A stretch of 64,000 nucleotides of DNA from a virus (lineage: Duplodnaviria; Heunggongvirae; Uroviricota; Caudoviricetes): IMG/VR virus record IMGVR_UViG_3300037312_000757; one strand, written 5' to 3'. This document shows positions 4,725-34,627 of this stretch, in pieces. Made by a program: the position numbers and the translations under genes. The stretch's first letter is position 1; each line of letters starts with the position of its first letter. The notes under the pieces are model-generated. The model had not been told where the DNA came from. It did not search any database and was given only the letters and a program-made list of their open reading frames with translations.

Positions 4725-6668
4725 TTATGACGCCAAACCCAAGAGTGTTACTGATACTGATGCAATAGTCGCATCGGCTGATGCTGGTGCGGTAACCGTC
4801 AGCACTTGACCAGGACTCAACGAGAACGATGAACTTGCAGTAAATGTTGCAGTATTCGATCCAGCGGCAAATACCATTGTGCCAACGTCTGTGCCATTTG
4901 CATTAATCGTGAACGTAGTTGATGCGGTTGGAACAACGGCTGCATAACCTTGAGAGTTGGTCAATCCAGCAGGGAATGTTACGGTGCGTCCACTAACAAA
5001 CTGAACAATCAGTTGATTTGCAGCAATTGCACCAAAAGCGCGATCTTTCACGTCATAGTATTTCTGTGCCTGAACAAACGCTGTTGTGGCCAGTGTGGTT
5101 GAGCTATCAGTCAGACGTGGCGTTGGAGCAGTTGGAGAACCGCTGAATGCAGGGCTTGCCAATAGAGCACCACCAGCATTTGCAATATCTGCTTGTTGAA
5201 GAGACACGGCCCCGGCACGTCCATTAAAAGATGTCACAGCGCTACTGGAAATAGCAGTCGCAACGAATGCAGTTGTTGCCAGATTTGCTGAATTATCCCC
5301 TGCCGCTGGTGTAGGTGCTGTTGGTGTGCCACTAAAAGCTGGACTCACAATATTCGCTGGTGTGAAGCCAATAGCGGTAGTCACGTCATCCGACGTCAAC
5401 GTAACAGGACCCAATCGAGTATTGAACGAGGTCACTGAGTTGTTCGCAATTGCAGACTTAACGAACTGAGTATTCGCCAAGACATGTGAATTATCAGCAG
5501 CTGACGCCGTTGGTGCAGTTGGTGTACCACTGAATGCTGGCGAAGCCAACAATGCACCACCCGCTGAAGTAATGTCGTTACCATTGAACGTAACTGCACC
5601 AGTACGGGTATTGAATGATGTTACTGCACCAGATACAGCAGTTGATACAGCTGATGTAACGAATTCTGTTGTTGCAATCTGAGTTGTGTTTGTGCCTGCC
5701 GTCGCAGTTGGAGCCGCTGGAGCTCCAGTAAATGTTGGTGATTCAATCAAAGCACCACCAGCATTAGTCAAGTCAGCAGAAGTAAGCGTAACGTTACCGC
5801 TTCGTGTGTTAAACGAAACCACACCCGTCGCCGCCGGCTTGTTGATCAGATCATTGTAGTCACCTGAGTAAGCCGCATTTGCAAGGAACAGACCAACCCA
5901 CTTGCTTGAATTCTTGTCAAACGCCAAAACCTTCTTGTCATCGGCGGCTGTTTCTGTGACATTTACGTCGGTCAAACCTGAAAGAGCACTAACGGTTGGC
6001 ACAGTCAAAGTTCCATCTGCGGTAATGTTTACACCATTACCAGCCTTGACGCCACCAAGGATAGTGTTCGTAGCAACAGGAAGAGAATATGGCGCTGGGG
6101 TGTTTGCAAGGTCAGTGTATGATCCTGATGTTGCCACCGCAGACAATGATGGCAAATTCTGCAAATCTGAGTAAGAACCAGTCTTTGCCACCGCAGCCAG
6201 TTGTTGAGCCACCCATTTTGTTTGGCTATTGCTGAATGCTAGGAAATATCCGTCAATACTTGCACCTTCCGTCACTAGAACGTCAGTCAATTGCTCAAGT
6301 TGCTGCGCCCCCGAATCGATATGCAAGTTTGCAATAGCGCTTGTAACAAATGCGGTGGTAGCAATCTGTGTTGAGTTAGCACCAGGTGTTGCAGTGGGTG
6401 CTGTTGGAGTACCAGTAAAGGCTGGCGAATTGGTTCCAATCGGAGTATAACCAAGTGCGAGGGTCACGTCTGAGGATGTCAGAGTAATATCACCCCTACG
6501 TTGGTTGAAAGAAGTAATACCACCAACCTGTACCATTTGGCCAGTAGTTCCATTCTTCTTGACGATATAAAGCGCACCATCAGCATTGTTGATAGCAATG
6601 TCAGTGAGTGCCATCTGGCTTGGTGCTGGAACTTCACCAGACACCAATGAATTTCTAATAATACCCAT
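4725..6668 (-). CDS. Tail fibre-like protein with tandem shaft repeats
   Basis: 647 aa; five copies of TSFNxRxGxVTL...SPAFxGxPTAPT...ATTxFV plus SYxDL motifs. Confidence 0.85.
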   Translation of the reverse strand: MGIIRNSLVSGEVPAPSQMALTDIAINNADGALYIVKKNGTTGQMVQVGGITSFNQRRGDITLTSSDVTLALGYTPIGTNSPAFTGTPTAPTATPGANSTQIATTAFVTSAIANLHIDSGAQQLEQLTDVLVTEGASIDGYFLAFSNSQTKWVAQQLAAVAKTGSYSDLQNLPSLSAVATSGSYTDLANTPAPYSLPVATNTILGGVKAGNGVNITADGTLTVPTVSALSGLTDVNVTETAADDKKVLAFDKNSSKWVGLFLANAAYSGDYNDLINKPAATGVVSFNTRSGNVTLTSADLTNAGGALIESPTFTGAPAAPTATAGTNTTQIATTEFVTSAVSTAVSGAVTSFNTRTGAVTFNGNDITSAGGALLASPAFSGTPTAPTASAADNSHVLANTQFVKSAIANNSVTSFNTRLGPVTLTSDDVTTAIGFTPANIVSPAFSGTPTAPTPAAGDNSANLATTAFVATAISSSAVTSFNGRAGAVSLQQADIANAGGALLASPAFSGSPTAPTPRLTDSSTTLATTAFVQAQKYYDVKDRAFGAIAANQLIVQFVSGRTVTFPAGLTNSQGYAAVVPTASTTFTINANGTDVGTMVFAAGSNTATFTASSSFSLSPGQVLTVTAPASADATIASVSVTLLGLAS

Positions 6669-6677
6669 TTGCTATCC

Positions 6678-7844
6678 TTATGCGAATGTTGAGTTCATTG
6701 AGAACCAAGTTGCACCGTCAGAACAGAATACCAACTGTGATTGGTTAGGCATCGAGAGACCCACGTTCACAGCTTGGTAATTCACGTAATTACCAGATGG
6801 TGGGTAAACAATGATTGTCTGGCCAGAATTGTTCACAACAAAGCACGTCGCACCAGCAACGGCTGATGGCATAATCACACCAGCATTTGCAGCACTTGCG
6901 CTAGTCACAAAACAGCATTCTGTTGTCATAGCTGTGGCGGTGCCTTGAGTTGTGCCCGCTGCCGCATACGTACTGTTTGAACGAATTGTGCGGGCGGCGA
7001 ATGTTGTCGTAGTTTGGAAAGTGGTACCGGCCGTGTTAGAAAACGTAACTTGTGGCACTGTATTACATGTGATACCAAACACACCATCTGAAATATGGTA
7101 CAAACCCGTATCGATCGCACCATCATTCACGAACGACAGACCAGGAGCACTAGCTGAGCCTTCAGGGATATACACACGACCTGTGAAAGTTGGATTGGCC
7201 AGTGTCGCGTAATTGCTTGGTGTGAAGTTACCAGCATCCCACGCCAGATTGCCATTGAATGTAGGACGTACTGATGTGTTGATTGCGGTAACCGCATTAC
7301 CAGAACGAGTTGCAGACAACCAAGGTACACCAGTTGTCCAAGCATCGTCAATCGTACGGAAAGACAATACGGTGGGACTAGTGTTGATATCCCATTTCTT
7401 GGAATCGGTGGCGCCAGAGCCATTAATTAGTAGGACTGAACCGCCGCCGTTAACACCAATTGACGTAGCTGAAGCACTCTGGGTGGTATAAAGACCACCC
7501 GTGAAATTGGTAAGACCAGTAAATGTGCCAGTAGTACCAGAAATAGTGCCACCGGCAATATTTGCAGTTATGGTACCAGCTGAGAAGTTACCAGACGCAT
7601 CTCTTGAAACAATCGTATTTGATGTTAGGTTAGGAGTCGCGTTTGTGCTCACTTGGATAGTACCAGCACCGTTTGTCAGTGAGATACCATTTGCCCCTGT
7701 TAGCGAACCAACGGACCAACGATTATTTGTGGCGTCACCGATCATCAACTGACCGTTATTTGGGGTAGAGCCACCAACACTTGTAATGTAGCCTGAAATT
7801 TGCAGGCCATTGTTTACGACAAAATCTTTTGTATAGACTGTCAT
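6678..7844 (-). CDS. Tail fibre/virion protein
   Basis: 388 aa, G/T/N rich; KDFVVNNGL N-terminus paralogous to 7947..9554; PGLSF..DTGLY fibre motif. Confidence 0.75.
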   Translation of the reverse strand: MTVYTKDFVVNNGLQISGYITSVGGSTPNNGQLMIGDATNNRWSVGSLTGANGISLTNGAGTIQVSTNATPNLTSNTIVSRDASGNFSAGTITANIAGGTISGTTGTFTGLTNFTGGLYTTQSASATSIGVNGGGSVLLINGSGATDSKKWDINTSPTVLSFRTIDDAWTTGVPWLSATRSGNAVTAINTSVRPTFNGNLAWDAGNFTPSNYATLANPTFTGRVYIPEGSASAPGLSFVNDGAIDTGLYHISDGVFGITCNTVPQVTFSNTAGTTFQTTTTFAARTIRSNSTYAAAGTTQGTATAMTTECCFVTSASAANAGVIMPSAVAGATCFVVNNSGQTIIVYPPSGNYVNYQAVNVGLSMPNQSQLVFCSDGATWFSMNSTFA

Positions 7845-7913
7845 TTGATTTCCCTTTCCATCAAATGTTTAAGTCAGTTATTTATTAACTACCACGTTAT
7901 AGTCAGACGTAGA

Positions 7914-7939
7914 AAGAGCGAGTATTCCTACTCGCTCTT
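7914..7939. terminator. Intrinsic terminator
   Basis: AAGAGCGAGTA-ttcc-TACTCGCTCTT. Confidence 0.8.
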
Positions 7940-7946
7940 CATTTGA

Positions 7947-9554
7947 TTACGCTACTAGCAATGTGGCTACTACAGTTACCGTCATAGCAGTGGATGATGC
8001 AGGAGTGAACATCAATGACCAGGTGCCTGTTACGATCTGTGCAGAGAATGAACCAAGCGTACCATTTGATGCAATGATGTCATACGTTGTCAACCAGATG
8101 TTTGTCGCATCAGTAATCATCATGACCTCGCAGGACTGGATATTGTTTGATGCATCCACCACCTGAACCATAAACTTGGCAGTGCTTGAAGTCGTAACCG
8201 CGGTAGAATACACTGCTGTTGGTGTGGTTGATGAAGTAGAAGTAGTTGCTGTATCTAGTGTCGCCTTCTCGATCTTCACTGGGCCGTTGAAAGTAGCGCC
8301 GCCACCGCCTGGTGTTACACCAGCGTTGGTCAGAGCAGTTGTCACAAACGCTGTTGTGGCGATTGATGTGTCGTTATCACCAGCTGCTGGAGTCGGAGCA
8401 GTTGGGTTACCAGTCAATGCTGGGCTTGCCAGAGGAGCAGCACCTGATACGTCTGCCACTGCAAGAACAACGTTACCAGTACGACCTGCCACCGTGACCA
8501 CGTTTGCAGTCAATACACCAGAGCCGTTTACCGTCAGACCAGTGCTGACTGATACTGCACCAACAGCTGACGATGTTGCCAGAGGCATATCAGCAGAAAC
8601 CAATGTGCGGTATGCCACCGCACCATTTGCTGATGAAGGAGCAGCCAGGAATGTGTTCTTTGTTTGGTTACCCCAAGCAGTGATCATATCGGTGGACAAT
8701 AGAATCACGTCTCCGGTACGATCAAACACTGATGTCACTTCTGATGCTACACCATCAATCTTGTCCCATGTGGAACCATTAAACGCGATAATATCGCCAA
8801 TATTCCACTGGGAGATACCGTCGATCGGCGTGGTGCCAGCCACTGAAACTTTGTACATCCAACCCTTTGTACCAACACCACTAGCCAATGATGGTGAGTT
8901 GGTTGACGCGTTCCAAGTACCCTGATAATTCAGACCGCCAACCACGGCTGGAGGCATCTGGCCCATAGGCACGTAGCCGCTTGAATCCAAGCTCGCCACC
9001 CCTCCGGCTACCGCGATGACGTTCGGGTTGACTGGTGTGTAACCAAGCGCACCAGTGACGTCTGATGACTGCAGAACGACTGTTCCTGTGCGACCAAAGA
9101 CTGTTTGGATTGGCGCTGCGGCAGAAGCACGAGCGTTAGTAAAGTACAGGTTTGTACCTTCTGCCACGGCAGAAGTTGTAAAGCTGATGTTTGCTGTACC
9201 GTCGAATGACACACCATTGATAGTACGCGCGGTTTGGAGCTTTGCTGCAGATGTTGCATTGCCTGACAGTGCAGCGGTGATTGTACCAGCTGTGAAGTTA
9301 CCAGACGCATCACGTGAAACAATTGTCGAAGCAGTATTGTTTGATGTTGCGTTTGAAGTCAGAGAGATGGTACCTGGGCCAGGCGTAAAAGTCAGACCGT
9401 TAGTTGCGGTCAGGCTACCAACCGAGAAGCGACCGTTTATTGCATCGCCGATCATGAGCTGGCCGTTTGTTGGAACGACACCGCCTACGGATGTGACATA
9501 TCCACCAAGCTGCAAACCATTTAGGAGAACAAAATCTCTATTGTTCGTTGACAT
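7947..9554 (-). CDS. Tail fibre protein
   Basis: 535 aa; KLQTARTINGVSFDGTANI fibre motif, YQGTWNAS..P.L domain, PTAPT shaft repeat. Confidence 0.85.
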   Translation of the reverse strand: MSTNNRDFVLLNGLQLGGYVTSVGGVVPTNGQLMIGDAINGRFSVGSLTATNGLTFTPGPGTISLTSNATSNNTASTIVSRDASGNFTAGTITAALSGNATSAAKLQTARTINGVSFDGTANISFTTSAVAEGTNLYFTNARASAAAPIQTVFGRTGTVVLQSSDVTGALGYTPVNPNVIAVAGGVASLDSSGYVPMGQMPPAVVGGLNYQGTWNASTNSPSLASGVGTKGWMYKVSVAGTTPIDGISQWNIGDIIAFNGSTWDKIDGVASEVTSVFDRTGDVILLSTDMITAWGNQTKNTFLAAPSSANGAVAYRTLVSADMPLATSSAVGAVSVSTGLTVNGSGVLTANVVTVAGRTGNVVLAVADVSGAAPLASPALTGNPTAPTPAAGDNDTSIATTAFVTTALTNAGVTPGGGGATFNGPVKIEKATLDTATTSTSSTTPTAVYSTAVTTSSTAKFMVQVVDASNNIQSCEVMMITDATNIWLTTYDIIASNGTLGSFSAQIVTGTWSLMFTPASSTAMTVTVVATLLVA

Positions 9555-9568
9555 GAATTAATCCTCAA

Positions 9569-10222
9569 TTAAGTCGTGACATAGGTCGCCACAATGGTTA
9601 CCTTCTTTGTGGACGCCGCTGTTGCTTGGAAAGTCAGAATCACATTACTACCTGACATGGATACGTCGAATGATCCAAGAGGGTTTTGGGTAGTCACCAC
9701 CGCAAAACCTGTCATATCCAATGTTGAACCGTCCGTCACAACCAAAAGCTCCTCTGAGTGGAAAGCATTGGTTGAGGTATCTTGAACCTGGCACATGAAC
9801 TTAACCGTACCACCGGTTGTCGTGTTGAATGTATAGACGGTTGTTACTGCTGTATCGGTAACTGAAGTTTGTTGAGTATCAATGGTTGCATTCTTGACGC
9901 TCAAAGCACTACTAAATGAACCACTTGAGGAGTTAGCGGGGACATAGCCAAGAATGGTACTGATATCACCTGCCGTGATAGCATGCCATTCGAGTGTATT
10001 GGCTGTTGTACTAACTCTGAGGAAGGATCCAGTGGTTGCACCCGTGGCTGGCCAAATCTGGCCATTCAATGCCACTGCACTTGTTGAGAGTTGCAGAGGA
10101 GCTTGCAAACCAGTTCCGTCCTCGACCAGACGTAGGATACCATCTAAGCCACCATTAGTGTTGTTGAGTGTCAACAACGACTTAAAGGTGGAAGCAGGCG
10201 TCTTACCTGAAAGATTTGGCAT
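9569..10222 (-). CDS. Virion protein with conserved N-terminal adapter domain (copy 1 of 4)
   Basis: N-terminus FKSLLTLNNTNGGLDGILRLVEDGTG matches three other genes; C-terminal domain resembles that of 7947..9554. Confidence 0.75.
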   Translation of the reverse strand: MPNLSGKTPASTFKSLLTLNNTNGGLDGILRLVEDGTGLQAPLQLSTSAVALNGQIWPATGATTGSFLRVSTTANTLEWHAITAGDISTILGYVPANSSSGSFSSALSVKNATIDTQQTSVTDTAVTTVYTFNTTTGGTVKFMCQVQDTSTNAFHSEELLVVTDGSTLDMTGFAVVTTQNPLGSFDVSMSGSNVILTFQATAASTKKVTIVATYVTT

Positions 10223-10324
10223 TTCTTATCTCCTCGAACGATTAGTGATATTTATGCCAAGTTTAAGGAGTTCTGCCTGGGTTTGATAGACTCAGACTAT
10301 TATCAGTGAGTAATTGATAGTCTT

Positions 10325-10560
10325 ATAACCTCCATGAATATTCCTGGAAGGATGACAATATCTTGGTATCTTCCTCAGAGATGGTTGATAGGAGGAAGTT
10401 ATTGAGTATAACCACTATGGGGAATTTGTGGAGTTCTCTCTGGGTTTCGTAATCATCTAGAGTGTTGATTGATTAACCTCCATGAATTGTCCTATGAACA
10501 ATTGATCTCATAGATGGTTATATCTGAGTTGTTTGTGGGGAAGGAACCACTAATGGGGAT
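10325..10560 (+). repeat. Degenerate ~140-150 bp tandem duplication in a non-coding spacer
   Basis: TAACCTCCATGAAT at 10326 and 10474, each followed by GATGGTT and AACCACTA(A)TGGGG. Confidence 0.6.
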
Positions 10561-10610
10561 ATGGTTATGTGGGAAAGCCACCAGTGGATAGTGGCTTTGT
10601 TGTGTGGGGA

Positions 10611-11051
10611 TTACAGTTTTGTTTTGAGTAATGGACTCAGATATAGGTCACGTGGAGTGACTCTGTTCAGTTGTTGTGCGTTCAGCAGTGGGGTGTTGAT
10701 GTATTCGAAGCCGGCGGCGATGAGTTCTGAGCAGAACCATCGTTTGTCGTTATTCCAATCTGATCTAAATGGCATTCCTGCGATAGCCATGAAGTCATAT
10801 GGTTTGCCGATTTGGTTGTAGAACCAGGCCATCAGGGATTGTTCTAGTTCTAGTGGGAGTTCGATGTATCGGATTTCTTCTTTGATGACTGGGGTGTAGT
10901 TCCAGGGGCGGATTTGGACGCCGCCATTAGCTCGTGCTCCTAGCCATCCTTCTAATGTTTTGACGTCGACGTGAGACCAGTCGCCCCAAGTCCAGAATTT
11001 GATGAATTCTGATACTGGGCCTGTGCCGTCTACGAAGCGGATTTCGATCAT
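10611..11051 (-). CDS. Permuted papain-like (YiiX/YebB, NlpC/P60 superfamily) amidase
   Basis: WSHVD, GKPYDF, WFCSELIA and VTPRDL motifs; start MIEIRF after GGGGAG RBS. Confidence 0.8.
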   Translation of the reverse strand: MIEIRFVDGTGPVSEFIKFWTWGDWSHVDVKTLEGWLGARANGGVQIRPWNYTPVIKEEIRYIELPLELEQSLMAWFYNQIGKPYDFMAIAGMPFRSDWNNDKRWFCSELIAAGFEYINTPLLNAQQLNRVTPRDLYLSPLLKTKL

Positions 11052-11137
11052 AGTTGATCTCCCCAAGTTGTTTTTCCTTAAAAATATTTATGGGGAATTC
11101 GGTCGAAATGAAGTACTCAGATAATGCGTGGATGGTC

Positions 11138-11864: not shown

Positions 11865-14033
11865 TTATGTTGCTTTGATTACGAACTTTGTGAATGGCAA
11901 AGCAGAAGGAATCAAAGGAGTGCGATATGATGTGGTGTCTGGTACCAGGAAGTTGGTGATGTTATTATTACCACCAGCGATTGATAGCATACCGTTATTA
12001 CCCATAAGCGTCCAAGATTGGATCATGTCAGAGGTGGTACCAGTAACACCTTGGCTCCAGTTAATGCCGTCATTGCCATACCAATAGCTACCGCCACCGC
12101 CGTAAATCACGAAGTAACCGTTGATATAAGCGACGCCCTTCGCGTTAGTTGAAATTGGTGCTGGGAAAGTACGTTGAACCCAAGTATTACCACCGTCAGA
12201 TGAGTAAACGTAAGTTGAGTTGCCTGATGAGTTGATTGTCAGCAGAGCTTTGCCGTTACCATAAGCTACGCCGGTGATAATGGCACTTGTAATTGAAGTG
12301 ATACTACCGGAAATCCAAGTTACACCGAGGTCGTTTGACACTGAAACACCACCACCAATAACGGTAATGTCTACCAGTGTATTTCCAAGACTGAACATCG
12401 TAATACCAGTAGTGGAACCAACAGAGTTGTTGTTTGGCCAAGGCATTGAAGTTTTTGCTACTGTGGTGACACCGTAGTCGGCAGTCATTACGAAGTTAGC
12501 CCCGATTTGACCACCAATAAAAATGTTTTCGCCAACATTACATACGGATGATGGGACCCAAGTTAGTGTAGGTGAGTTTATTGTCCAGTTTACGCCATCT
12601 GATGACGAAGCAATAAACACACCATTACCAGTAACTGGTGTACCCCACAAAATAAATTTTGTTGGGGTCACGAATGCTTGGCGCCAGTAAATAGGCACAG
12701 TTTGGCTTGTGATAGCTGAATATGTCCATGAAGCACCGCCATTAGTGGTGATAGCTACTGGAACGGAAACAGAAATTTGGTTAAATTGTGTGTTTTCGAA
12801 TGTGATCCATGTATTACCAACACTCATCATTGGATAGAACACTGGTAATGCCGTTGTCATAGTCAGAGGAACAATACCACCCAATGTTGACATGTCATTT
12901 GTCCAGTTTACCACAATTTGAGCACCGCTGGCATAATAACCTACGTTTACAAGTTGATTGCCGTAAACATGAGGGCTACCAAATGCTGTTGTGAAGAACG
13001 GGCCGCCGGAGGTATACAACGAAGCTTTAGATGTCCAAGTAATACCATCTGTTGAATACTGTGTGTTAGTCGTAGTGGCGTTAACAATAGTAACAATCAT
13101 CGCACCATTTGTCATAACTTCTACGTTGGCAAACGTGTTGCTGATTGCACCAGTGCGAGCAGTCCAGGTAACACCATCTGGTGAAGTATTGATGGTTGTA
13201 GATGCCGTGCCTGATGGGCCAACAAAGATAGAGAGTACTGAATTCCAACGGAGTGATGAAAAGCCTACTGTTGGACCACTGCGAACAGTCCAAGTTGTAC
13301 CATCTGGTGAAGTAGCGGTGTTATTAGTGCTAGTACCAGAAGTAACATAAACCCATGATGAACCGTTCCAATCCAAGCCTTTTGGGGTATATGTGGAAGT
13401 TGTACCAACAGTAACTGATGCAAATGTTACACCATCTGTACTTTTATAGACAACGTTATTGGTACCGTTTGTGTACTGAGCCAAATAAACGCCATTACCG
13501 TAACGAACAATACCAACAAAGTTGCTAAGTGGAAATGTAATTGAGGTTGCTGAAGACAGATTTAAATCTGAGTACATGTACCAAGTTGTGGAACTCAGGA
13601 ATGCAACATAGATATTGCCATTCGCCACGTTGATACTGTTAATCGTTGTTACGCCTGATGGGAATGTCAAAGTTTTCAGATAGGCGAGAGATGACAAATT
13701 ACCACCAGTTGTTCTGAACACTACACCAGTTAGACCAATAACAAAATATTCGCCACCGTAAGAGAAACCGATTGGGTTAGAACCCATATTATTGGTCGTG
13801 GCCTGTTTTGGCAAAGCTGATGGAATGCTTGTCTTTGTCCAATAGTCACCCATAAATGTTGGGGGAGTAATGGCAGCCAGAGCAGGATATGTAGAGGCGC
13901 TAAACTTAGCGCCGCTATCCACATAATTTGAATTTGAAAAGCCTGTTGGTACTTGCAATAGTTGGCCTGTTACAAGTGTTGAAGCACTAGTGGAAGCATT
14001 GCTTACTGAACCACCAAATGTAGAAATACCCAT
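11865..14033 (-). CDS. Asp-box (BNR) beta-propeller virion/receptor-binding protein
   Basis: 722 aa with many S-x-D-G-x-x-W repeats (SPDGTTW, SPDGVTW, STDGITW, SSDGVNW, SSDGGNTW). Confidence 0.8.
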   Translation of the reverse strand: MGISTFGGSVSNASTSASTLVTGQLLQVPTGFSNSNYVDSGAKFSASTYPALAAITPPTFMGDYWTKTSIPSALPKQATTNNMGSNPIGFSYGGEYFVIGLTGVVFRTTGGNLSSLAYLKTLTFPSGVTTINSINVANGNIYVAFLSSTTWYMYSDLNLSSATSITFPLSNFVGIVRYGNGVYLAQYTNGTNNVVYKSTDGVTFASVTVGTTSTYTPKGLDWNGSSWVYVTSGTSTNNTATSPDGTTWTVRSGPTVGFSSLRWNSVLSIFVGPSGTASTTINTSPDGVTWTARTGAISNTFANVEVMTNGAMIVTIVNATTTNTQYSTDGITWTSKASLYTSGGPFFTTAFGSPHVYGNQLVNVGYYASGAQIVVNWTNDMSTLGGIVPLTMTTALPVFYPMMSVGNTWITFENTQFNQISVSVPVAITTNGGASWTYSAITSQTVPIYWRQAFVTPTKFILWGTPVTGNGVFIASSSDGVNWTINSPTLTWVPSSVCNVGENIFIGGQIGANFVMTADYGVTTVAKTSMPWPNNNSVGSTTGITMFSLGNTLVDITVIGGGVSVSNDLGVTWISGSITSITSAIITGVAYGNGKALLTINSSGNSTYVYSSDGGNTWVQRTFPAPISTNAKGVAYINGYFVIYGGGGSYWYGNDGINWSQGVTGTTSDMIQSWTLMGNNGMLSIAGGNNNITNFLVPDTTSYRTPLIPSALPFTKFVIKAT

Positions 14034-14044
14034 GATTTAATCCT

Positions 14045-14917
14045 TTAGAAACCAGTTACCATAATCGACATATTGGCACTGGAACCAATAACTGTCACTG
14101 TCCAGCCCGCCGGCAGAACTGTAGAAAGATCACACAGAAGTGTTGTATTCGCCGAAACGGTCACATTGTTCAGATACGCATTCGCTGCACTAGCTGCACC
14201 ACCATTTGTGAAGTTCACAGAAATAGTCTGATCAGAACCAGATGAGTTACAAATGATCAATGAATTGACAGTTTCAGTCTTACCTGTTGGGACTGTATAT
14301 ACGACTGTAGAAGAGGTCGGCATCGCACCAAAGTACAGGCGTTGAATGTTTGAGGAGCCATTGCCAGAAACGTTAATAGTGACGCCAGTAGCACTTGCCG
14401 AACCCACTAAGCTACCACCATTGAGAATAACCATCTCAGTTGAAATCACCACAGTCTGGCCAGCAGCCACAGAACCATTTGAGAAAATAGCATTTGCAGC
14501 ACTAGCAGAACCACTCTGAGGAACAATATTTAGATTAACTGTAATGGCTGAACTAGTAGTATTCACCAATGTGATCTGAGTGAGCAACGTATCCTGACTA
14601 GCAGTTGCCAATGTAGCAGATGAAGTACCCAATACACCCTGATATGTCAGAACTGGAACTACTGATGACCCATTGGCGTTTGACCATGTCAATTGATTAC
14701 CAGTGCTTACTGACAATACTTGACCAACACCAGGTGTGACTGTAGGCCAAATCAGACCATTCAGAGCAATCTGAGTGGATGAAAGACTGAGAGGAGCAAC
14801 AGTACCATTGCCATCCTCCACAGTACGAAGCGTTGAGTCAAGTCCTGCACCCGTATTAGTGAGCTTCAACAACTCCTTATACGAATCCATCACTCGACGA
14901 TTGAATAATGATGGCAT
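14045..14917 (-). CDS. Virion protein with conserved N-terminal adapter domain (copy 2 of 4) and two internal repeats
   Basis: Start MPSLFNRRVMDSYKELLKLTNTGAGLDSTLRTVEDG after GGAGG RBS; duplicated ASAANA...V.A..T domain. Confidence 0.8.
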   Translation of the reverse strand: MPSLFNRRVMDSYKELLKLTNTGAGLDSTLRTVEDGNGTVAPLSLSSTQIALNGLIWPTVTPGVGQVLSVSTGNQLTWSNANGSSVVPVLTYQGVLGTSSATLATASQDTLLTQITLVNTTSSAITVNLNIVPQSGSASAANAIFSNGSVAAGQTVVISTEMVILNGGSLVGSASATGVTINVSGNGSSNIQRLYFGAMPTSSTVVYTVPTGKTETVNSLIICNSSGSDQTISVNFTNGGAASAANAYLNNVTVSANTTLLCDLSTVLPAGWTVTVIGSSANMSIMVTGF

Positions 14918-14959
14918 TCTTTCCCTCCTAATGAGATATAATACCATCAATATTTATGG

Positions 14960-16930
14960 TGAACCTTACAGGATATTACAACCACTATTGCTCAGAAGAA
15001 CTATATACCATCTTCCTCCTCAGAGGAAAGAACTCTCCATCCTCAGAGGAAAGAAACATGGCACCCGAGATTCTTTTAGAAAACTCGAAATTCTTTTAGA
15101 AATCCCCCTATAACGACCTTCCACCCGAGATTCTTCAATTCTCCCTCAGAGGAACCAACTACCATCCTCAGAAGAAAATACTAACCACCTCCACCCCTCG
15201 AGGAATCCTCAGAGGAAAGAACTCCAATAACCATCTTCCCTCAGAAGAACATAACCACAATTTCTTATACCCTCAGAGGAAAACCACAAAAAACATTTAC
15301 CAGCCACTAAAATCAATTACAAATCACACTTATGGCTTAAAATCAATTACCACCCTCAGAGGAAAGAACCGGTCATATACCATCCTCAGAGGAAGATAGT
15401 TTGTTGAATACATTTCCTCAGAGGAACTATCTTTCCTCCTCAGAGGAAGAAACCTGGTTTACAACTTGAATGCCACTTTTCCCCGAAAGAGTCCTACCAA
15501 GTTCACAAAAATATTGACGACACAGACAAAGAACACTATGGTGACGTGATTTTCGTTAATATGATGTACACACGGCGTCATCCTTTTACCATCTTTGATT
15601 CATCCTCAGAGGAAAAGATGAACTTCATCCTAGTTTCACCATTTCACCTACTGTTTCGTTATCGTGAATGACAGTTGGTGACGGTTCGCCTAACCGTTCA
15701 AATACTGTTCCATTACGAAAAAACGCGTCATCGCGGTATCGTTAACATGGCATTGAATAAGCATTGCTAAATATCATCACGAATATTTCATTCATGCTTC
15801 AAAATGTGTTCTAAACGATGCACCATGTTCATATTCCTTTCATCCTCTGAGGTTTCCTCAGAGTCGCTATCTGAGTTGTTCCTCTTCCTCCTCTAGTCTT
15901 TTCATTCACTCATTCTGTCCTCTGAGTAATTTTCATTACCACAGTTTCTAATCCTCTTTGATCTCTGAGGATTATCACTACTGTCGCTCTCATTGCTTTT
16001 ATTATCTGAGTTGGTATTGCTGTTCTCTTAGGAAAAAGTCTGTATTTAATTTTGCGTCTTTTAGTGACGTATAACAGTGAGTGTTATCTGAGATGTGGTT
16101 ATCTGAGAAATGGTCGGGGCCATTATTCTTGATATTGGTGATTTTCAAGTCTGAGGTGGTATTATCATTTAAGCTCTGAGGGATTTTCGCGGTGAAGTTT
16201 TTCTCAGAATTGCGGTAATCATCTGAGTGGGTGTTAAGTTCTTGGTGATGTTTGCGCGGGAAATTTATTTGGTAGCTCCTTCAGATTGGCTTTTCTTTTC
16301 GCGCGTGGTATTTGAATTTTGCGGAGAATTATTTCCAGAATGGTGCGGAGAATCGAACTGTGATTATGATGAAAACCTTTGAAAACCGTAGAAGAGCCTT
16401 GGTGGGGAAGCAGTGTGGGATCTGAGTGCAGAGCTGAGCGTGGTAGCGGAGAAGCGTGGTGAGCCTTGTGCGCGTGATGGTGCGGGAAATGATGTGAGGA
16501 GAATGACCCATAGAATGGGGAAGAGAATGGGGAAGGGAATTGGCTCTTGCGCGTGGGGAGCATTTTCCAGAATGAAGTCTAGAATGGGAGGGTGAAAAGA
16601 ATCATTTTGCCACTGAAATTGGGGAATGGCTGTATAAAAATTTCGCCAGCTTTACGCCAAATTTCGGGATTTAGGGTTTTGGCCCGAAAGACTTCCTGGA
16701 AAAAGCCAAAATTCTGGTCGCCGTGAAATCGTGAATTCCAGAAAATGACATGTCAAGAAATCGCCTATGGAGCGATTTTCACGTTTTCCAGAATGAGTCT
16801 AGAATTGAGTCAGAATATCATCTAGAATGAAACCAGAATAGAAACAGAAACCGCCATACCAGCCATCTACCACTCTTTCACCAGAATATCTTCTATGGCG
16901 AATTTTTCTTTGAAATTTTCTTTTGAAAGA
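14960..16930. repeat. 2 kb non-coding region with oppositely oriented CCTCAGAGG/TCTGAG repeats; candidate replication origin or protein-binding array
   Basis: Ten exact CCTCAGAGG at 15018-15612, about ten reverse TCTGAG at 15844-16430, AGAAT cluster at 16500-16890, visible A/C- to G/T-rich strand switch. Confidence 0.8.
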
Positions 16931-16953
16931 ATGGGCCATTATTAATGGCCCAT
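16931..16953. terminator. Intrinsic terminator
   Basis: ATGGGCCATT-att-AATGGCCCAT. Confidence 0.7.
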
Positions 16954-16985
16954 TTATGCAGCAAGATAGTTAGTATTACAAACTA

Positions 16986-17555
16986 TCAAGTGGTTGGTAG
17001 ATTATATCCATTAGCGTCTGGTTGATTGGAACCTACTGGTGATATCCATGTTACGTTTGTGATTTGATCGTAATCGGTCATAGCATTTATTTGAGTAGCC
17101 AGAGTTGCCTTTTGTTGTAGGCAGGCCAGTATTTGTGCTTTACCGTCTCTGCCTACTTGTTGGATCTGGGTGGTGTTGTGACTAAGATATGACCAGGTAT
17201 TGGTTGAGTTAGCGCACCAGAATGGGGTTGACCAGGATGTTTCGTTTGCTTGGACTGCCAGTACTGAGTCGAGGACTGAGGCTGAGAGGTTCTGTTGGTC
17301 CAGGTCTTCAGCGGGATAATGTAGCCAGGTTCCTGTAGCGTTTGAGTTGAAGCCCAGATAGATTTCGCTCTTGCAGGCGTCGTTCATCTGTTGGATCTTC
17401 CATGCTTTGTGATCGTCTAGTGAGTAGATTGGATCTGGTGTATTGCCATCGGATAGCCATGTTTCGTAATCATCCCAGTGACGAGAGCCTTGCGGGATGA
17501 TTTCATTTGTATCCTCGTTGATAACGATAGTTGGATCTGCTGTTAGTTTGTACAT
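16986..17555 (-). CDS. Tail fibre assembly chaperone (DUF4376-like)
   Basis: DYETWLSDGNTP, GFNSNATG..HYP..DQQNL, FWCA..W; follows a fibre gene. Confidence 0.75.
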   Translation of the reverse strand: MYKLTADPTIVINEDTNEIIPQGSRHWDDYETWLSDGNTPDPIYSLDDHKAWKIQQMNDACKSEIYLGFNSNATGTWLHYPAEDLDQQNLSASVLDSVLAVQANETSWSTPFWCANSTNTWSYLSHNTTQIQQVGRDGKAQILACLQQKATLATQINAMTDYDQITNVTWISPVGSNQPDANGYNLPTT

Positions 17556-17567
17556 AGTTAGGAGTCC

Positions 17568-19832
17568 TTATAGATCAGCGTCAGCGGTGGCGTGGATCAC
17601 ATAGGTATTATTAGCCGCGATTGTGGTTGGTGTGCCTACTGTTACGCCTGCTGCTGATATCTTTGAAACTGGTAGAGTTTGCGCCTGTACTGCGCCTGAA
17701 AGATTTGTCCAATATGGGGTCGAGTTATTACCGACTGTGTAGAGCGTTACGGTTGGTAGTCCTCGCATTGGTACATCAAATGACCAGTTAGCCCATTGTG
17801 AGAAGCCGGTTGAACCTTGGCTGATTGTTAGAGGTGTAGAGTAGATACCAGTGTTTGCTGCTGGTGTGGTAGCAGTTGGGAATGTTTTGCGGTAGAAGCG
17901 CAGACACTGCATGATTTCTTGATGTGTAGTTTGCACCATGTATGGTGTTGCTGCTGGTCCTGCTTCCAGTTGAACCTGTACCAGGTAGAATGAGAATGCT
18001 TGGCTTGTTGGTAGAACGAATTGGAGTGCCAGATAATCGTTACCGTTTGTACCGAGCGTGCCTGTTGTGGTTGGTAGGTTGAATGTGGCGGTTAGACGTG
18101 TGAAAGTTGAGCTGTTAACGGTAAAGTATTGAGTTGGTGTAGTAACGGTTGGTGATGGAGAACCGCCTGTTCCGAAGCATTGTGCTAAGTTTACACCAAG
18201 CTGGAATGAGCTTTGGGAACCAGCACCAAGAGCGACGCTGAATGAAACCGTACAAGTTTGACCGTTCAGAACGTAAATGCCTTCACAGCGGTGACTCAAC
18301 ATCAAAGATGTGAGGTTTGGGGCCACTGTTTGATTCCAAGAATACACACCGTATGGTCCAAGAGATGCGGTGAGACCAGCTGGTTGTGTTCCGGCCAGTG
18401 CTTGGCCGATCGTGAACGTGCCTGGTGATGTGCCCGCGTAATCAATGCGCCATTTGTCTGCCGTGTATGTACCTGACGCTGGAGTTGTCCAAGAGTTACC
18501 ACGCTGCCAGACGTCAAATTGGCCATTCAGAATACGATTTCTGCGGTACGGGACTGACTGAACAAATGCGGTTGAAGCAATTGAGTTATCGTTCTTCCCT
18601 AGTGGGACCACATTTGTCATTGTGTTGGTGATGTTCACACCTGAAGAATTCGAAATCACTTCTGACGAATCACCTGGTGTGATCAATGTGGTATTCGCAT
18701 TACCATTTGAAAGAACCAGTGAAAAACCGCCTGTGGTATTGTTGACGACTATCCACCATCCTTGTGATGGGAGAGTGACAGTTGCATTAGCGGTAAGTGT
18801 TCCTGAAATCTGCAGACAGGCATAATTGTATTGATTTGCAGCCAATATCGTATCGCCTGAAATTGTTATTGCAGTGGTACTGTTGCTCACTATCTGAACG
18901 AATTGTGTGGTTGCAATTTTGTGGCTGCTATCACCAGCTGGTGGTGTTGGTGCTACTTGGCTTGAAAGGAAAATACCGTAAGTATTGTGTAGGATTGCGA
19001 AACAAGACTCACCAGGTTGCAAGGTTAATGGTGAACCTGCTCCATTCGACATGACGAAAGTAATAGGTTGTGAACCACCATTCCAGAGAGTTGCCGAATC
19101 TGATTGACCAATACTTGGTGGTACTGATGGAAGCGTAATCGTTGCTGCGGTTGAACCCTGGAAATACAGAACTGAATACGCACATTCGTCTGGGGTCAAT
19201 GTCAGGTCACCAGTAACCGTAAAGGTATTCACCCCAGTTAATACTTGGGCAAGCCATCCCATGCTAACTGGTGCGAGACTAGGACTTAGCAGTGTGGTGG
19301 CGGGAACAACTGAGTTTGAGAAAGCCAATCCGGTACTCAAACCAATAACAGGTGCAACTGATGATTGCGGAATTACGATCGAACCGCCATTTGCAGTCGT
19401 TAGGGTAATAGAAAAAGCACCTGATGTTTCATTAACAACTAACCATTGACCTGCATTTGGTAGCGTAACAGTCACATTAGTGGTAAGAGTTCCGTTCAAA
19501 ACGATAGTGCTAGAACCAGCTTGGGCGGTAGACAGAATCACATTAGCGTTTGATAGCGTAATGTTTGATACACCTTTGGCTATGTTTTGAACGAACGCCG
19601 TGGTAGCGTAAAGAGTAGAACTGTCACCAGAAGTAGCTGTAACGCCGGTTGGTGAATTCATACCACCATAGGCGAGTGAATTCCAGGCTGTTGTGCCGTC
19701 TCCGATTTTGAAGTATTTGGTGTCAAGCTCAAGACCCAGTTCGCCTACTGCTAGAATCGGATTTGATGCTGTCCATTGTGCCGCATTTTGTCTGCGGAAT
19801 TGAATAGTGCCTTGATATGTGAATGCTGCCAT
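17568..19832 (-). CDS. Tail fibre with Mtd_N/hyaluronidase-type N-terminus and carbohydrate-binding-like C-terminal domain
   Basis: IQFRRQNAAQWTASNPILAVGELGLELDTKYFKIGDGTTAWNSLAY; RNRILNGQFDVWQRG...YTADKW...VQLEAG...CLRF. Confidence 0.85.
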   Translation of the reverse strand: MAAFTYQGTIQFRRQNAAQWTASNPILAVGELGLELDTKYFKIGDGTTAWNSLAYGGMNSPTGVTATSGDSSTLYATTAFVQNIAKGVSNITLSNANVILSTAQAGSSTIVLNGTLTTNVTVTLPNAGQWLVVNETSGAFSITLTTANGGSIVIPQSSVAPVIGLSTGLAFSNSVVPATTLLSPSLAPVSMGWLAQVLTGVNTFTVTGDLTLTPDECAYSVLYFQGSTAATITLPSVPPSIGQSDSATLWNGGSQPITFVMSNGAGSPLTLQPGESCFAILHNTYGIFLSSQVAPTPPAGDSSHKIATTQFVQIVSNSTTAITISGDTILAANQYNYACLQISGTLTANATVTLPSQGWWIVVNNTTGGFSLVLSNGNANTTLITPGDSSEVISNSSGVNITNTMTNVVPLGKNDNSIASTAFVQSVPYRRNRILNGQFDVWQRGNSWTTPASGTYTADKWRIDYAGTSPGTFTIGQALAGTQPAGLTASLGPYGVYSWNQTVAPNLTSLMLSHRCEGIYVLNGQTCTVSFSVALGAGSQSSFQLGVNLAQCFGTGGSPSPTVTTPTQYFTVNSSTFTRLTATFNLPTTTGTLGTNGNDYLALQFVLPTSQAFSFYLVQVQLEAGPAATPYMVQTTHQEIMQCLRFYRKTFPTATTPAANTGIYSTPLTISQGSTGFSQWANWSFDVPMRGLPTVTLYTVGNNSTPYWTNLSGAVQAQTLPVSKISAAGVTVGTPTTIAANNTYVIHATADADL

Positions 19833-32598: not shown

Positions 32599-33012
32599 TC
32601 ACAGGCGAGAATAACTCGATGCAGAATCCGTATAAATGACTTTCTTGATATCGAATGCAGCGATTGCCATCTTACAACCGTCACAGGGGCAGCTGAAACC
32701 CCAGCTACCATCTTTCATTACGCGCGCGACGTAAAGTGATGATTTCTTCAACTCGTCAGTTGAAAGGTGGTTAAGCGATTTCCGGATAGCACTTACCTCA
32801 GCGTGAAGGAAGTATTTCTCTTCTTCCCGACTGAACTGTACCTGGAATGGATGGCTTTTGTATTCATTCCAGCCAATCGAAATGATTTCGTTCTTGTAGA
32901 CGATCGCTGCTGCGTGTTTCGAGCCTTCATCTGGTGCGTTGTCCAGTGCTGCTCTTACCAATAATTGCATGATGCGGTCGTGCCTCTTCTGACTGGGCAC
33001 TTGTTCTGCCAT
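32599..33012 (-). CDS. Zinc-dependent cytidine/dCMP deaminase family protein
   Basis: HAE...CPCDGC motif. Confidence 0.85.
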   Translation of the reverse strand: MAEQVPSQKRHDRIMQLLVRAALDNAPDEGSKHAAAIVYKNEIISIGWNEYKSHPFQVQFSREEEKYFLHAEVSAIRKSLNHLSTDELKKSSLYVARVMKDGSWGFSCPCDGCKMAIAAFDIKKVIYTDSASSYSRL

Positions 33013-33078
33013 TCGTAGCTCCTTGTGCGCAGAAGTCTACGATTTGCCAGTTTGGAAAGCAAAATGCGCCACCTTATG

Positions 33079-33106
33079 TTGACAAGCTGCCAGACGCTAA
33101 TAGAAT
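33079..33106 (+). promoter_or_regulatory. sigma70-like early promoter
   Basis: TTGACA-16 nt (contains TGCCA)-TAGAAT. Confidence 0.7.
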
Positions 33107-33139
33107 GCAAACAGTTTTACCTTTTATAAGAAGAACAAT

Positions 33140-33457
33140 ATGCCAATTTGTCTTTACCTTCCTGCGTTCGTTATTTCCTTCTATTCGATTCTGGCTTTTG
33201 CAACTGGTATCGACGGCTTCTCGACTCCACTCGAAACGTATTCACCTAAGAATATTGTCGAGCACCTCAAGTTCAGTCATCTGCTGATAGCGTTTGTGCT
33301 CAGCGCATTACCCTACTTGAATGTAGTGTTTGCTTTGATGGGGAGCGTCATCCTAGTTGCTGGTGCAGTCGTCGAAGCGTCCTTCTGGTTGTTCTCAACA
33401 AAGTTCATGTCACGCAAGGTCTTTCAGCCCAAGCGCAAGACCAGCAGGGGCGAATAA
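33140..33457 (+). CDS. Small membrane protein (LPYLN motif family)
   Basis: 105 aa, hydrophobic segments, downstream of promoter. Confidence 0.7.
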   Translation: MPICLYLPAFVISFYSILAFATGIDGFSTPLETYSPKNIVEHLKFSHLLIAFVLSALPYLNVVFALMGSVILVAGAVVEASFWLFSTKFMSRKVFQPKRKTSRGE

Positions 33458-33756: not shown

Positions 33757-33802
33757 TTGTATGGCACTTGCTCATCTGAACCGTTTATGTTAGAATGAAG
33801 AC

Positions 33803-34561: not shown

Positions 34562-34627
34562 TTACTGCTTGATTGCCATATCGTTCTCCGCAACAATATG
34601 GCAATCTTTCATTAGTCAGGTCAAATC

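Follow-up and report, generated by a model that had tools for sequence, protein, structure and literature searches.

The locus and its setting

The window analysed in this study is a stretch of 64,000 nucleotides (64 kb) from a soil, T4-like phage genome of about 520 kb; its T4-like traits include rIIA/rIIB, T4-type late-promoter words, and a clamp loader at 46578-47504. Within the window, a gap of about 2 kb (14918-16985) contains no genes and is flanked by tail-fibre genes. All six frames of the gap are interrupted by stops, the repeat spacings are not multiples of 3, and the ORFs of its core are all short (41 aa or less), with no Shine-Dalgarno sequence seen. A tRNA search of the gap found none, and an Rfam search matched no family, even at E<10. 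Coding sequence, tRNA, and known RNA family were dropped on these grounds, as was a CRISPR array, since the repeat core is 9-13 nt with spacings of 22 to 240 nt, against the repeats of 23-50 nt with regular unique spacers used as the criterion. The gap is a cis-acting DNA element rather than a gene. Two DNA runs, both as contigs only, showed no variants, joints, or ends at the locus. The features of the locus and its surroundings are as follows.

10255..10610, plus strand: small sister locus, upstream of a paralogous adaptor gene (9569-10222)
14045..14917, minus strand: fibre-adaptor gene, whose synonymous sites share the left-arm skew (minus strand G/T-rich)
14951..14957, minus strand: late-promoter word ATAAATA, belonging to the downstream fibre-adaptor gene 14045-14917
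14990..15446, unstranded: dense TTCCTC-W-GAGGA array, with 11 in-phase copies and one out-of-phase weak variant at 14991
15447..15842, unstranded: core of about 400 bp, repeat-poor, with near-neutral skew and one in-phase palindrome (15604-15612)
15767..15774, plus strand: late-promoter-like word CTAAATAT, facing rightward into the second arm, within TGCTAAATAyCATyCACG
15843..15971, unstranded: four palindrome-like copies beyond the core, at 15844 (exact), 15855, 15919, and 15962
15868..16428, plus strand: second arm, eleven copies of (T)TATCTGAG(TT) and other TCTGAG, on the G/T-rich strand and not helically phased
16325..16840, plus strand: four AGAAT clusters (ATTCT on the minus strand) with 11-12 nt spacing
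16930..16954, unstranded: perfect 12+12 palindrome AATGGGCCATTA / TAATGGCCCATT, directly past the stop of fibre gene 16986-17555
16986..18152, minus strand: 189-aa fibre gene and the last 195 or so codons of a 754-aa fibre gene, with the right-arm skew at synonymous sites

On the left, the fibre-adaptor gene has a ribosome-binding site, AGGAGGG, and its ATG at 14917. Many structural genes on the minus strand of the window likewise have ATAAATA 25-45 nt ahead of their start codon. On the right, the palindrome at 16930..16954 is likely a terminator hairpin that closes the locus. The comparison throughout rests on one independent relative, which is metagenomic (L039/L038, hereafter the relative). 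In L039 the flanking protein is 74% identical, the flanking genes overall are 65-76% identical, and a hairpin with a T-run lies at the place equivalent to 16930..16954.

The phased palindrome array

An earlier, sequence-only reading of this DNA had named ten exact copies of CCTCAGAGG on the plus strand. All of them were found, together with the CTCAGA variants at 14991, 15167, and 15240, and the secondary repeats CACCCGAGATTCTT and TAAAATCAATTAC, each present twice (the latter by eye in the sequence). With one reverse copy at 15844, CCTCAGAGG occurs 11 times in the 64-kb window, where shuffles predict about 0.2-0.25, and the repeat words are locally enriched (Poisson p 1e-15 to 1e-22). The quasi-palindrome described as CCTC-W-GAGG is confirmed as a palindrome, but it is longer, TTCCTC-W-GAGGA (11-13 bp), and carries an asymmetric flank, which reads rGTTCTTTCCTCTGAGGrTGG on the G/T-rich strand. 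In the dense array (14990..15446), the flank and the G/T-rich composition are both on the minus strand.

The spacing of the copies had been taken as irregular; it consists of whole helical turns of 10.45 bp. The best period for the palindromes in the window is 10.45 bp (R 0.91, 0/5000 jitter nulls); when the variant at 14991 is included, R is 0.82 and 0-1 of 5000 jitter nulls reach the observed value, and adding every weak palindrome variant leaves the period unchanged. The spacings themselves vary from 2 to 23 turns. About a dozen palindromes share one face of the helix across some 830 bp and bracket the 400-bp core: the palindrome centre at 15608 is 15.9 turns from that at 15442 and, across the core, 22.97 turns separate 15608 from the centre at 15848, which is therefore in phase. 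[quoted passage not shown] Since the spacing is in whole turns, it points to palindromes that would act as double-stranded DNA bound by a protein, not as RNA. Among promoters of the 64 kb, the palindrome is confined to the locus and its sister and is absent from all others, and a role as a general promoter element was therefore dropped.

The core, the second arm, and a third repeat class

The core had been described as poor in repeats, which is correct for about 400 bp, but it holds the in-phase palindrome at 15604, and motif-like copies continue to 15971. Within the core, a block of roughly 130 nt (about 15690-15800) is some 60% identical to the relative. It is here that CTAAATAT lies; its surrounding TGCTAAATAyCATyCACG is conserved in L039 on the corresponding strand, and a CTAAATA variant stands about 25 nt ahead of the start of the L039 gene 8411-8893. 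From its sequence, CTAAATAT is a putative promoter.

In the second arm, eleven reverse TCTGAG copies were found (15846-16421), where about ten had been counted. The two arms had been regarded as oppositely oriented arrays of one motif; they consist of two motif families, a phased palindrome on one side and an unphased TATCTGAGTT word on the other. The equivalent of the second arm in L039 contains six copies of TATCTGAGTT on the corresponding strand (6782-6911). A third class, missed by the first reading, is formed by the AGAAT clusters (16325-16349, 16500-16536, 16569-16581, and 16790-16835); the 64 kb contain 9 pairs of AGAAT spaced 11-12 nt apart, and all of them fall within 16325-16840. This zone is rich in G (32-35%), with GC skew up to +0.46, and it also carries TGGGGAA words. 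In L039, ACTCT occurs at 11-14 nt spacing (5925-5986 and 6291-6313). Neither the second nor the third motif class showed phasing near 10.5 bp.

In the relative, the order of the terminator, the 11-12-nt clusters, the TATCTGAGTT array, the core, and the palindrome array is kept, whereas a blastn comparison of the gap with L039/L038 aligned almost nothing. Therefore, as judged from this pair of sequences, selection appears to fall on the motifs and the layout rather than on the sequence of the gap.

Strand composition and the mutational footprint

The left arm, reported as A/C-rich, is 59-72% A+C, and the right arm, reported as G/T-rich, is 66-69% G+T from about 16000 onwards, but the stretch 15800-16000 is C/T-rich. 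The sign of the GC skew flips near 16.0 kb and that of the AT skew near 15.5-15.8 kb. To the left and to the right of the core alike, the G/T-rich strand is the one reading 5' to 3' in the outward direction. All 25 of the most GC-skewed 400-bp windows in the 64 kb lie at the locus and its flanks, at the sister locus (10.2-10.9 kb), or at 61.7-62.9 kb, and the local skew remains once the motifs are masked.

Third codon positions of the neighbouring genes carry the mirror G/T skew, regardless of gene or orientation. In the fibre-adaptor gene (14045..14917), GC3 skew is +0.22 and TA3 skew is +0.41, where the background values are about -0.15 and +0.2; third positions have a plus-strand keto excess of -0.20 to -0.45, which ends abruptly at 14040. 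In 16986..18152, the plus strand is G/T-rich, the coding-strand GC3 skew is -0.44/-0.45 and the TA3 skew -0.28/-0.24, and the plus-strand keto excess at third positions is +0.28 to +0.45, against about +0.1 beyond 18152. Genes on the same strand but on opposite sides of the locus thus have third-position skews of opposite sign. In L039 the skew spans a different gene and a reverse-oriented gene by the array, and decays over about 2.5 kb; the adaptor ortholog, whose distance to the nearest palindrome is greater by about 1.1-1.2 kb (some 2 kb to the dense array), has a skew close to background, and on the TATCTGAG side the skew hardly enters genes. Since it persists after masking, takes opposite signs across the locus, and follows distance in L039, the skew is a property of DNA strand and position.

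When the adaptor gene was compared with its L039 ortholog, C>T changes outnumbered T>C by 23 to 11 and A>G outnumbered G>A by 16 to 2 (p=4e-4); the same substitution test on the 189-aa fibre gene was not significant. An asymmetry of C>T and A>G is of the kind that would be expected from deamination of single-stranded DNA. The left edge of the skew is the gene boundary at 14040 and the right edge lies inside a fibre gene (about 18150); sharp edges of this kind could be produced by recombination junctions.

The sister locus

The palindrome, TATCTGAGTTGTT, and ATCATCTAGAGTG each occur once in the sister locus (10255..10610), which also has two TAACCTCCATGA boxes and, on the right only, a G/T tract. 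The N-termini of the two adaptors, of the main and the sister locus, are 44% identical. The amidase-like gene by the sister locus (10611-11066) has a GC3 skew of -0.50 and a TA3 skew of -0.61.

Comparison with known origins and centromeres

In the iteron origins of plasmids (P1, R6K, and pSC101) and of lambda, sites are spaced in phase with the B-DNA repeat, and the O-protein sites of lambda are inverted repeats that bind dimers (PMC5043065). The locus resembles these origins in having many short, non-coding, helix-phased candidate sites, here 12-14 palindromes at 10.45 bp. However, no rep- or O-like gene adjoins or overlaps the array, and the spacing is 2-23 turns rather than contiguous units of 19-22 bp. 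In addition, unlike iteron origins, the locus has a second arm with other motifs and a strong mirror skew.

The position of the locus between two fibre cassettes had been considered unusual, but T4 oriG lies inside the tail-fibre gene 34 and oriE inside the baseplate gene 5; in T4 records, origins occur in late structural regions, with primer RNA antisense to late genes. A T4 origin needs only a promoter and a downstream unwinding region, one origin may depend on a late promoter, and oriE has evenly spaced direct repeats whose role is unproven (Kreuzer & Brister 2010, PMC3016281). A T4 R-loop origin would require a promoter whose RNA persists as an R-loop over an unwinding element downstream; at the locus, a candidate late-type TAAATA word in the core faces a G-rich tract with GC skew up to +0.46. 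The locus is unlike oriF and oriG, which are about 100 bp long and have neither repeat arrays nor local skew. The repeats of oriE have a 24/48-nt period within the coding sequence of gene 5, whereas AGAAT is non-coding and recurs at 11-12 nt, so that the likeness is one of spacing only. As a positive control, T4 failed: over 100-160 kb, oriF and oriG were without comparable local skew, with nothing at 115321 or 152947, and the largest keto excess was 0.17, against 0.32 at the locus. Therefore, local skew is no known signature of R-loop origins and is not usable for assigning the locus to them.

Escherichia coli oriC contains two helically phased, oppositely oriented arrays of weak DnaA sites (Rozgaja et al. 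2011, reviewed in PMC5043065). As in the locus, phased arrays flank a centre, and in oriC they build a higher-order nucleoprotein complex. The locus differs in its motif, in the absence of DnaA boxes, in its four-fold larger span, and in that only one arm is phased. Among plasmid centromeres, F sopC has 12 repeats, each 43 bp long and containing a palindrome, and in R1 parC 10 iterons flank a promoter core. Centromeres share with the locus ten to twelve sites on the same face, but the locus has no partition genes nearby, and we know of no mirror-image skew at centromeres. In vertebrate mitochondrial DNA, which is replicated by strand displacement, the strand that is left single turns G/T-rich through C>T and A>G deamination. 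The signature is that of the adaptor-gene comparison, but the tracts at the locus are just 1-2.5 kb long and diverge from a point within a phage genome of 520 kb.

Proposed function and alternatives

The original observation holds and is stronger than first reported; the phasing, the third repeat class, and the third-codon skew are new. A bidirectional replication origin had been proposed, with iteron-like repeats. The non-coding, cis-acting repeats and the outward polarity agree with such an origin, but there is no large-scale skew turn at the locus: where a minimum of cumulative GC skew near 15.6 kb had been predicted, the 64 kb show only a local dip at 15-16 kb, before and after which the curve rises, and the window has its sole large-scale turn near 41 kb. 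The repeats are iteron-like in being helically phased and in having their number and order, but not their spacers, conserved in the relative, except that the second arm is unphased. Tentatively, and with somewhat less than even confidence, we regard the locus as a cis-acting nucleoprotein site that serves as the starting point for opening the DNA outward both ways, most likely a local replication-initiation or R-loop zone.

One possible scheme suggests that a dimeric DNA-binding protein of the phage (or the host) would coat the phased palindromes cooperatively, and that the bound protein would wrap or loop the DNA around the core. The DNA would then be opened outward from the core in both directions; the outward strands would often be single-stranded and hence would gather C>T and A>G changes over time. 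The likeliest process may be a local initiation of replication, by way of an R-loop or strand displacement, that a promoter in the core would feed: the late-type TAAATA word faces the G-rich arm, whose transcript would pair stably with the C-rich template. The locus may be one initiation zone among several, not a single origin that shapes genome-wide skew.

Against this reading count the position of the large-scale skew turn, the T4 control, the sharp skew edges, the L039 genes that the skew hardly enters on the TATCTGAG side, the non-significant test on the 189-aa gene, and the outcome of a search of the locus for elements of well-known origins. No DnaA boxes were found, GATC sites are few, and GANTC shows an enrichment of only about 1.8-fold. 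The core has no clear AT-rich unwinding tract; duplex stability at the locus is -76.9 kcal per 60 bp, against a window average of -81.2, with the weakest stretches dispersed and not centred on the core. No initiator-like gene lies beside the locus, as the flanking fibre and adaptor genes have no Rep-like domain, and no MotA-type middle promoter was recognised there. A sigma-54-like word at 15465-15485 (minus strand, by eye) was dropped since it is not conserved in L039, and a G-quadruplex was dropped since there is one long-loop match, which is not conserved.

The outward G/T polarity fits either outward leading-strand synthesis or outward transcription, and a site of transcription control, though unlikely, is the alternative that survives best. 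The palindromes would be operators of a repressor or activator that polymerises on DNA and governs divergent core promoters in addition to the late promoter of the adaptor cassette, and the skew would result from heavy outward transcription, including a long G/U-rich non-coding late RNA antisense to the fibre operon, with replication playing no part. The conserved CTAAATA late-promoter-like word in the core faces the second arm, both the main locus and its sister are directly upstream of paralogous adaptor genes with late promoters, and in L039 palindrome copies stand about 60-95 nt ahead of two inserted genes. Heavy transcription makes the non-template strand G/T-rich through transcription-associated mutation bias, and such a bias agrees with the polarity of the locus. 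However, 12-14 operators far exceed the known phage repressor systems, and the confinement of the motif, which is missing from other promoters in the 64 kb, also argues against this explanation. No sigma-70 type promoters or outward terminators above chance were found in the gap, and the dense array of L039 does not adjoin the adaptor gene. Moreover, the reverse-oriented L039 gene has the same plus-strand bias, so that strong antisense read-through would be needed.

A segregation or packaging site is improbable. Here the phased palindromes would be recognised by an adaptor like ParR, SopB, or TubR, or by the small subunit of a terminase, which would wrap the DNA into a complex for moving or packaging the 520-kb genome. 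In phasing and copy number, the locus matches the sopC/parC pattern of about ten same-face sites, and inside the L039 array lies a small ORF whose look-alikes, all weak, are winged-helix and ScpB-like. That ORF, however, is absent from the 64-kb window, a homologue search yielded none on a contig as long as that of this phage, and among the window proteins scanned there was no ParA, ParB, TubZ, partition adaptor, or terminase gene adjoining the locus. T4-type phages package by the headful mode, which uses no pac site, and neither segregation nor packaging predicts a mirror mutational skew that enters neighbouring genes.

There is also a slight chance that the locus is a recombination hot spot for swaps of tail-fibre cassettes, in which polar, Chi-like G/T words would focus crossovers in the core and the motifs would provide microhomology for gene insertion. 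The locus separates two fibre cassettes, the skew tracts have the sharp, junction-like boundaries described above, and in L039 three extra genes are inserted within or after the array, one with its stop codon inside a palindrome copy. Nevertheless, Chi-type signals are read on single strands, so that helical phasing is not needed, and elsewhere in the window the words show no enrichment. By strand-polarity reasoning, resection starting at a break in the core would also leave the opposite of the outward G/T polarity, since the strands thereby exposed would be those opposite to the G/T-rich ones.

A sponge or other repeat-bearing non-coding RNA (CsrB/RsmZ-like), with each repeat an RNA-binding site, is very improbable, and the CsrB/RsmZ type was dropped: the G/T-rich strands have many GGA-containing repeats and folding energies below those of shuffles (z -3.9 and -4.5), but the low energy arises because the repeats are self-complementary and pair among themselves, the predicted folds have the motifs paired to a greater extent than background and not loop-exposed, a phasing of 10.45 bp belongs to duplex DNA, and Rfam had no match.

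The nearest relatives of this half-megabase phage are all uncultured. With regard to the initiation reading, it is possible, if doubtful, that huge T4-like phages have an undescribed type of initiation zone, in which a phased array loads a dedicated protein by a promoter core, and diverging single-stranded tracts leave a deamination footprint that overrides codon usage within 1-2.5 kb. If so, together with one-sided skew tracts elsewhere in this genome, these phages would replicate from many short-range starts that are readable in sequence, and the mutational footprint would allow start zones in uncultured phages to be mapped from sequence alone. The locus offers a testable handle, with the 13-bp palindrome as bait for the binding protein and a spacing rule that can be broken. 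If it is a regulatory or segregation site instead, no phased binding array yet described in a phage would be as large, and the locus would also show strand-specific mutation locally overriding codon usage.

Searches for related loci

A nucleotide search of 50,697 phage records with the locus gave no match, nor did a search of the same records with the adaptor protein. No similar array came up when IMG/VR and 185,579 genomes of bacteria and archaea were scanned for the paired motifs; the hits were Ser/Glu-rich coding repeats and a single unrelated phage of high GC. In IMG/VR, relatives of the adaptor are limited to its N-terminal domain. Adaptor proteins with 67-83% identity are P0002 and P0005-P0010. 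The adaptor protein has relatives closer than L039, namely P0002, P0006, and P0007.

Organization of the gap

The repeat arrays occupy a gap at 14918-16985 between two minus-strand genes, and all repeat positions listed in the sequence-only reading were found to be correct on recheck. The parts are listed in the reading direction of the flanking genes, right to left.

Features of the gap and of its borders
16986-17555, minus strand: tail-fibre gene, 189 aa, bordering the gap on the right
16930-16954: part 1, perfect 12+12 palindrome
16325-16840: part 2, four clusters of ATTCT (AGAAT on the plus strand) repeated every 11-12 nt, within a plus-strand G-rich tract
15846-16428: part 3 (second arm), TCTGAG in 11 copies, mostly within the word TATCTGAG(TT)
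About 400 bp: part 4, core
15446-14990: part 5, dense array of the palindrome TTCCTC-W-GAGGA
14957-14951: part 6, late-promoter word of the adaptor gene
14045-14917, minus strand: fibre-adaptor gene, 290 aa, bordering the gap on the left

CCTCAGAGG occurs 11 times (0.25 expected), TCTGAG 11 times within 591 bp (0.21 expected), and CTCAGA 13 times within 661 bp (0.11 expected); all nine AGAAT pairs spaced at 11-12 nt in the 64 kb fall at the locus. Within 14918-16985 no open reading frame (ORF) exceeds about 110 aa or starts plausibly, stops are abundant in all six frames, and the distances between repeats do not come in multiples of three.

Helical phasing of the palindromes

The main new result is that the palindromes are helically phased. 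The centres of the 12 palindromes in the window are spaced by 23, 103, 22, 41, 32, 32, 83, 30, 32, 22, and 166 bp, corresponding to 2.2, 9.9, 2.1, 3.9, 3.1, 3.1, 7.9, 2.9, 3.1, 2.1, and 15.9 turns of 10.45 bp. When periods between 5 and 20 bp were scanned, 10.45 bp was the best (R 0.91), and none of 5000 sets in which each spacing was jittered by up to 5 bp matched or exceeded it. The palindrome across the core (15848) lies 22.97 turns further on. When all weak variants were added, including the out-of-phase 14991-14999, the period was kept (R 0.80-0.82, p about 2e-4). In the related metagenomic contig L039 the spacings differ from those of the window (64, 33, 41, 94, 32, 61, 63, 62, 32, 40, 64...), and the peak period is 10.40-10.45 bp (R 0.76-0.83, p about 0.001; with all weak variants, R 0.63, p 0.008).

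A register of 10.45 bp belongs to duplex DNA of the B form. Therefore, the palindromes are best read as putative sites for a dimeric protein that share one face of the helix, an arrangement suited to cooperative binding, wrapping or looping. The TATCTGAG words, in contrast, showed no helical phasing when tested, and the AGAAT clusters run at 11-12 nt. The arms are thus two different devices, not one motif array in two orientations as had been proposed from the sequence alone.

Conservation of the plan in a relative

Comparative evidence on the locus comes from one independent relative, L039, recovered as a single metagenome contig (the contig L038 is 99.7% the same), whose adaptor protein is 74% identical to that of the window. 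In its gap (5673-8400) the parts follow one another as in the window: a terminator hairpin, ACTCT repeated every 11-14 nt, six TATCTGAGTT words, a core, and a palindrome array of 12-14 copies of TTCCTCTGAGG. The flanking genes are 65-76% identical, but inside the gap almost nothing aligns by blastn, the sole exception being a core block of about 130 nt that is roughly 60% identical. A plan kept without alignable sequence argues that selection acts on the short motifs, their copy numbers, and their order. The locus is a conserved, non-coding architecture of three motifs, in which duplex-phased palindromes bracket a core.

At its array end, L039 carries three extra genes, one of them reverse-oriented between palindrome copies. 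A 95-aa ORF (8010-8297, minus strand) faces the opposite way within the array, with palindromes at either end and a further one within it; it has only four close homologues, none of them from a contig as long as that of this phage, and its weak look-alikes by language model and structure are winged-helix DNA-binding proteins (YjcQ, ScpB-like, HTH_5). A 160-aa ORF without assigned function (8411-8896) has its TGA stop within the palindrome copy GCCCTCTGAGGAT and another copy about 60 nt upstream of its start, and so resembles an inserted cassette flanked by repeat copies.

Strand skew around the locus

The strand-composition flip noticed earlier is real: among 400-bp windows of the 64 kb, the 25 with the strongest GC skew all lie at three places, namely the locus with its flanks, a small related site at 10.2-10.9 kb, and 61.7-62.9 kb. 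Masking 25 nt round every palindrome leaves the skew in place (GC skew -0.44 versus -0.36 unmasked). Against background third-position skews of about -0.15 (GC3) and +0.2 (TA3), the adaptor gene favours G and T on the minus strand, which encodes it (GC3 +0.22, TA3 +0.41), whereas the two fibre genes on the right, with the same coding strand, have the opposite bias (GC3 -0.44/-0.45, TA3 -0.28/-0.24). The tracts stop at 14040 on the left and about 18150 on the right.

In L039, a different gene adjoins the palindrome array and has matching values (+0.21, +0.43), the reverse-oriented gene inside the array likewise has the plus-strand bias (+0.35), and the bias decays over about 2.5 kb. The adaptor ortholog, which lies about 1.1-1.2 kb farther than that of the window from the nearest palindrome (about 2 kb from the dense array), is near background. 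The other side is weaker, the upstream genes of L039 being barely affected. At synonymous sites of the adaptor orthologs, the outward strand, which runs 5' to 3' away from the core, shows 23 C>T versus 11 T>C and 16 A>G versus 2 G>A (p = 4e-4); the asymmetry was not significant between the 189-aa gene and its L039 ortholog. C>T together with A>G is the pattern left by deamination of single-stranded DNA. Overall, the skew is positional and strand-specific, a G/T bias of the outward strand with a deamination-type signature, regardless of gene identity and orientation.

Three exact copies of TAACCTCCATGA (10326-10337, plus; 10474-10485, plus; 63187-63198, minus) each border a tract that ranks among the three most skewed in the window. 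At 15820-15838, just ahead of the second arm's first palindrome, lies a degenerate look-alike, CACCATGTTCATATTCC. In an unrelated high-GC phage contig, L068, GATCCTCTGAGGTTCC(Y)GATCTTG occurs twice in tandem (100-180), just upstream of a 480-aa ORF (228-1670) whose coding strand is strongly G/T-rich for more than 1.5 kb. This tandem shows no sign of kinship with the locus and may be a recognition site.

Comparison with known origins

A genome-scale skew minimum had been expected at the locus. Within the 64 kb available, cumulative GC skew climbs from 3 to 41 kb and then drops, and the locus is only a local V on the rising limb. The peak at about 41 kb adjoins rIIA/rIIB. Around it (33000-42000), the skew of minus-strand genes before 33 kb is the reverse of that in minus-strand genes after 42 kb; the turn therefore does not follow gene orientation and may be a true large-scale replication landmark. 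Since two proven R-loop origins of T4 (annotated at 115321 and 152947) had no comparable local skew in a control, local skew is no established mark of T4-type origins. The T4 oriE repeats are a coding 24/48-nt repeat within gene 5, whereas the clusters here are non-coding, and the likeness to oriE iterons is therefore one of spacing only. The position between fibre cassettes, previously called unusual, is not odd for this type of phage, as T4 oriG lies inside gene 34.

The phasing fits the helical-phase rule given for the iterons of plasmids and for E. coli oriC, where two arrays of weak DnaA sites run in opposite orientation (PMC5043065), and the lambda origin has inverted-repeat sites for a dimer. 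By analogy, the locus would work most like an iteron-type origin. Membership is not claimed, since no DnaA boxes and no clear unwinding element were found at the locus and no initiator gene beside it; the survey covered the genes of the window, and the binding protein may be encoded elsewhere in the genome. No counterpart of the mirror skew tracts was found among the known systems compared.

Possible mechanism

The locus is tentatively proposed to be a local zone of replication initiation or R-loop formation. A protein would coat the phased sites and organise the core, and the DNA would be repeatedly opened on both sides, exposing the outward 5' to 3' strands. These could be lagging-strand templates of forks departing from the core, strands displaced through R-loop-primed synthesis, or non-template strands of outward transcription; at T4-type origins, transcription, R-loop-primed synthesis and the fork are steps of one pathway, and for one of the origins in T4 a late promoter may be needed (PMC3016281). 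A late-type TAAATA word with its flanks is kept in both phages, directed from the core into the G-rich arm.

That word and the transcriptional route of exposure would also suit a region that controls transcription alone and yields divergent non-coding RNAs, a reading that is unlikely but the best placed of the alternatives. A centromere or packaging site, to which phased protein sites might also belong, is less probable, and a recombination hot spot slightly less again. A sponge RNA is very improbable: the arms fold better than shuffled sequences (z about -4), but such a value is expected when self-complementary repeats pair among themselves, the predicted folds do not present the motifs in loops, a tRNA search of the locus found none, and Rfam gave no family at gathering score and none at E<10. 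Models that start from a double-strand break within the core are ranked low, since the ensuing 5' resection would expose the opposite strands.

The phage and its abundance

On sequence grounds, the window is evidently part of a very large T4-like phage. It encodes rIIA and rIIB (36532-39976), giant baseplate/fibre proteins and a clamp loader, has the T4-late-promoter-like ATAAATA 25-45 nt upstream of many structural genes, and its adaptor protein beside the locus is also found on a 523,837-bp contig. Two rhizosphere metagenome runs contain DNA of the window. In the second, X2, pieces identical to 13000-19000 have word depths of roughly 6,000-11,000, which would make the phage extremely abundant there, and the assembly fragments into short pieces across the locus. 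Elsewhere in the window, a 440-aa phage protein (40766-42088, minus strand) consists of three to four PAS sensor domains, with no output domain recognised, and a 178-aa fragment-like match to the NTPase domain of DNA polymerase III alpha (DnaE) at 48413-48949 (minus strand) lies near the clamp-loader gene (46578-47504, minus strand).
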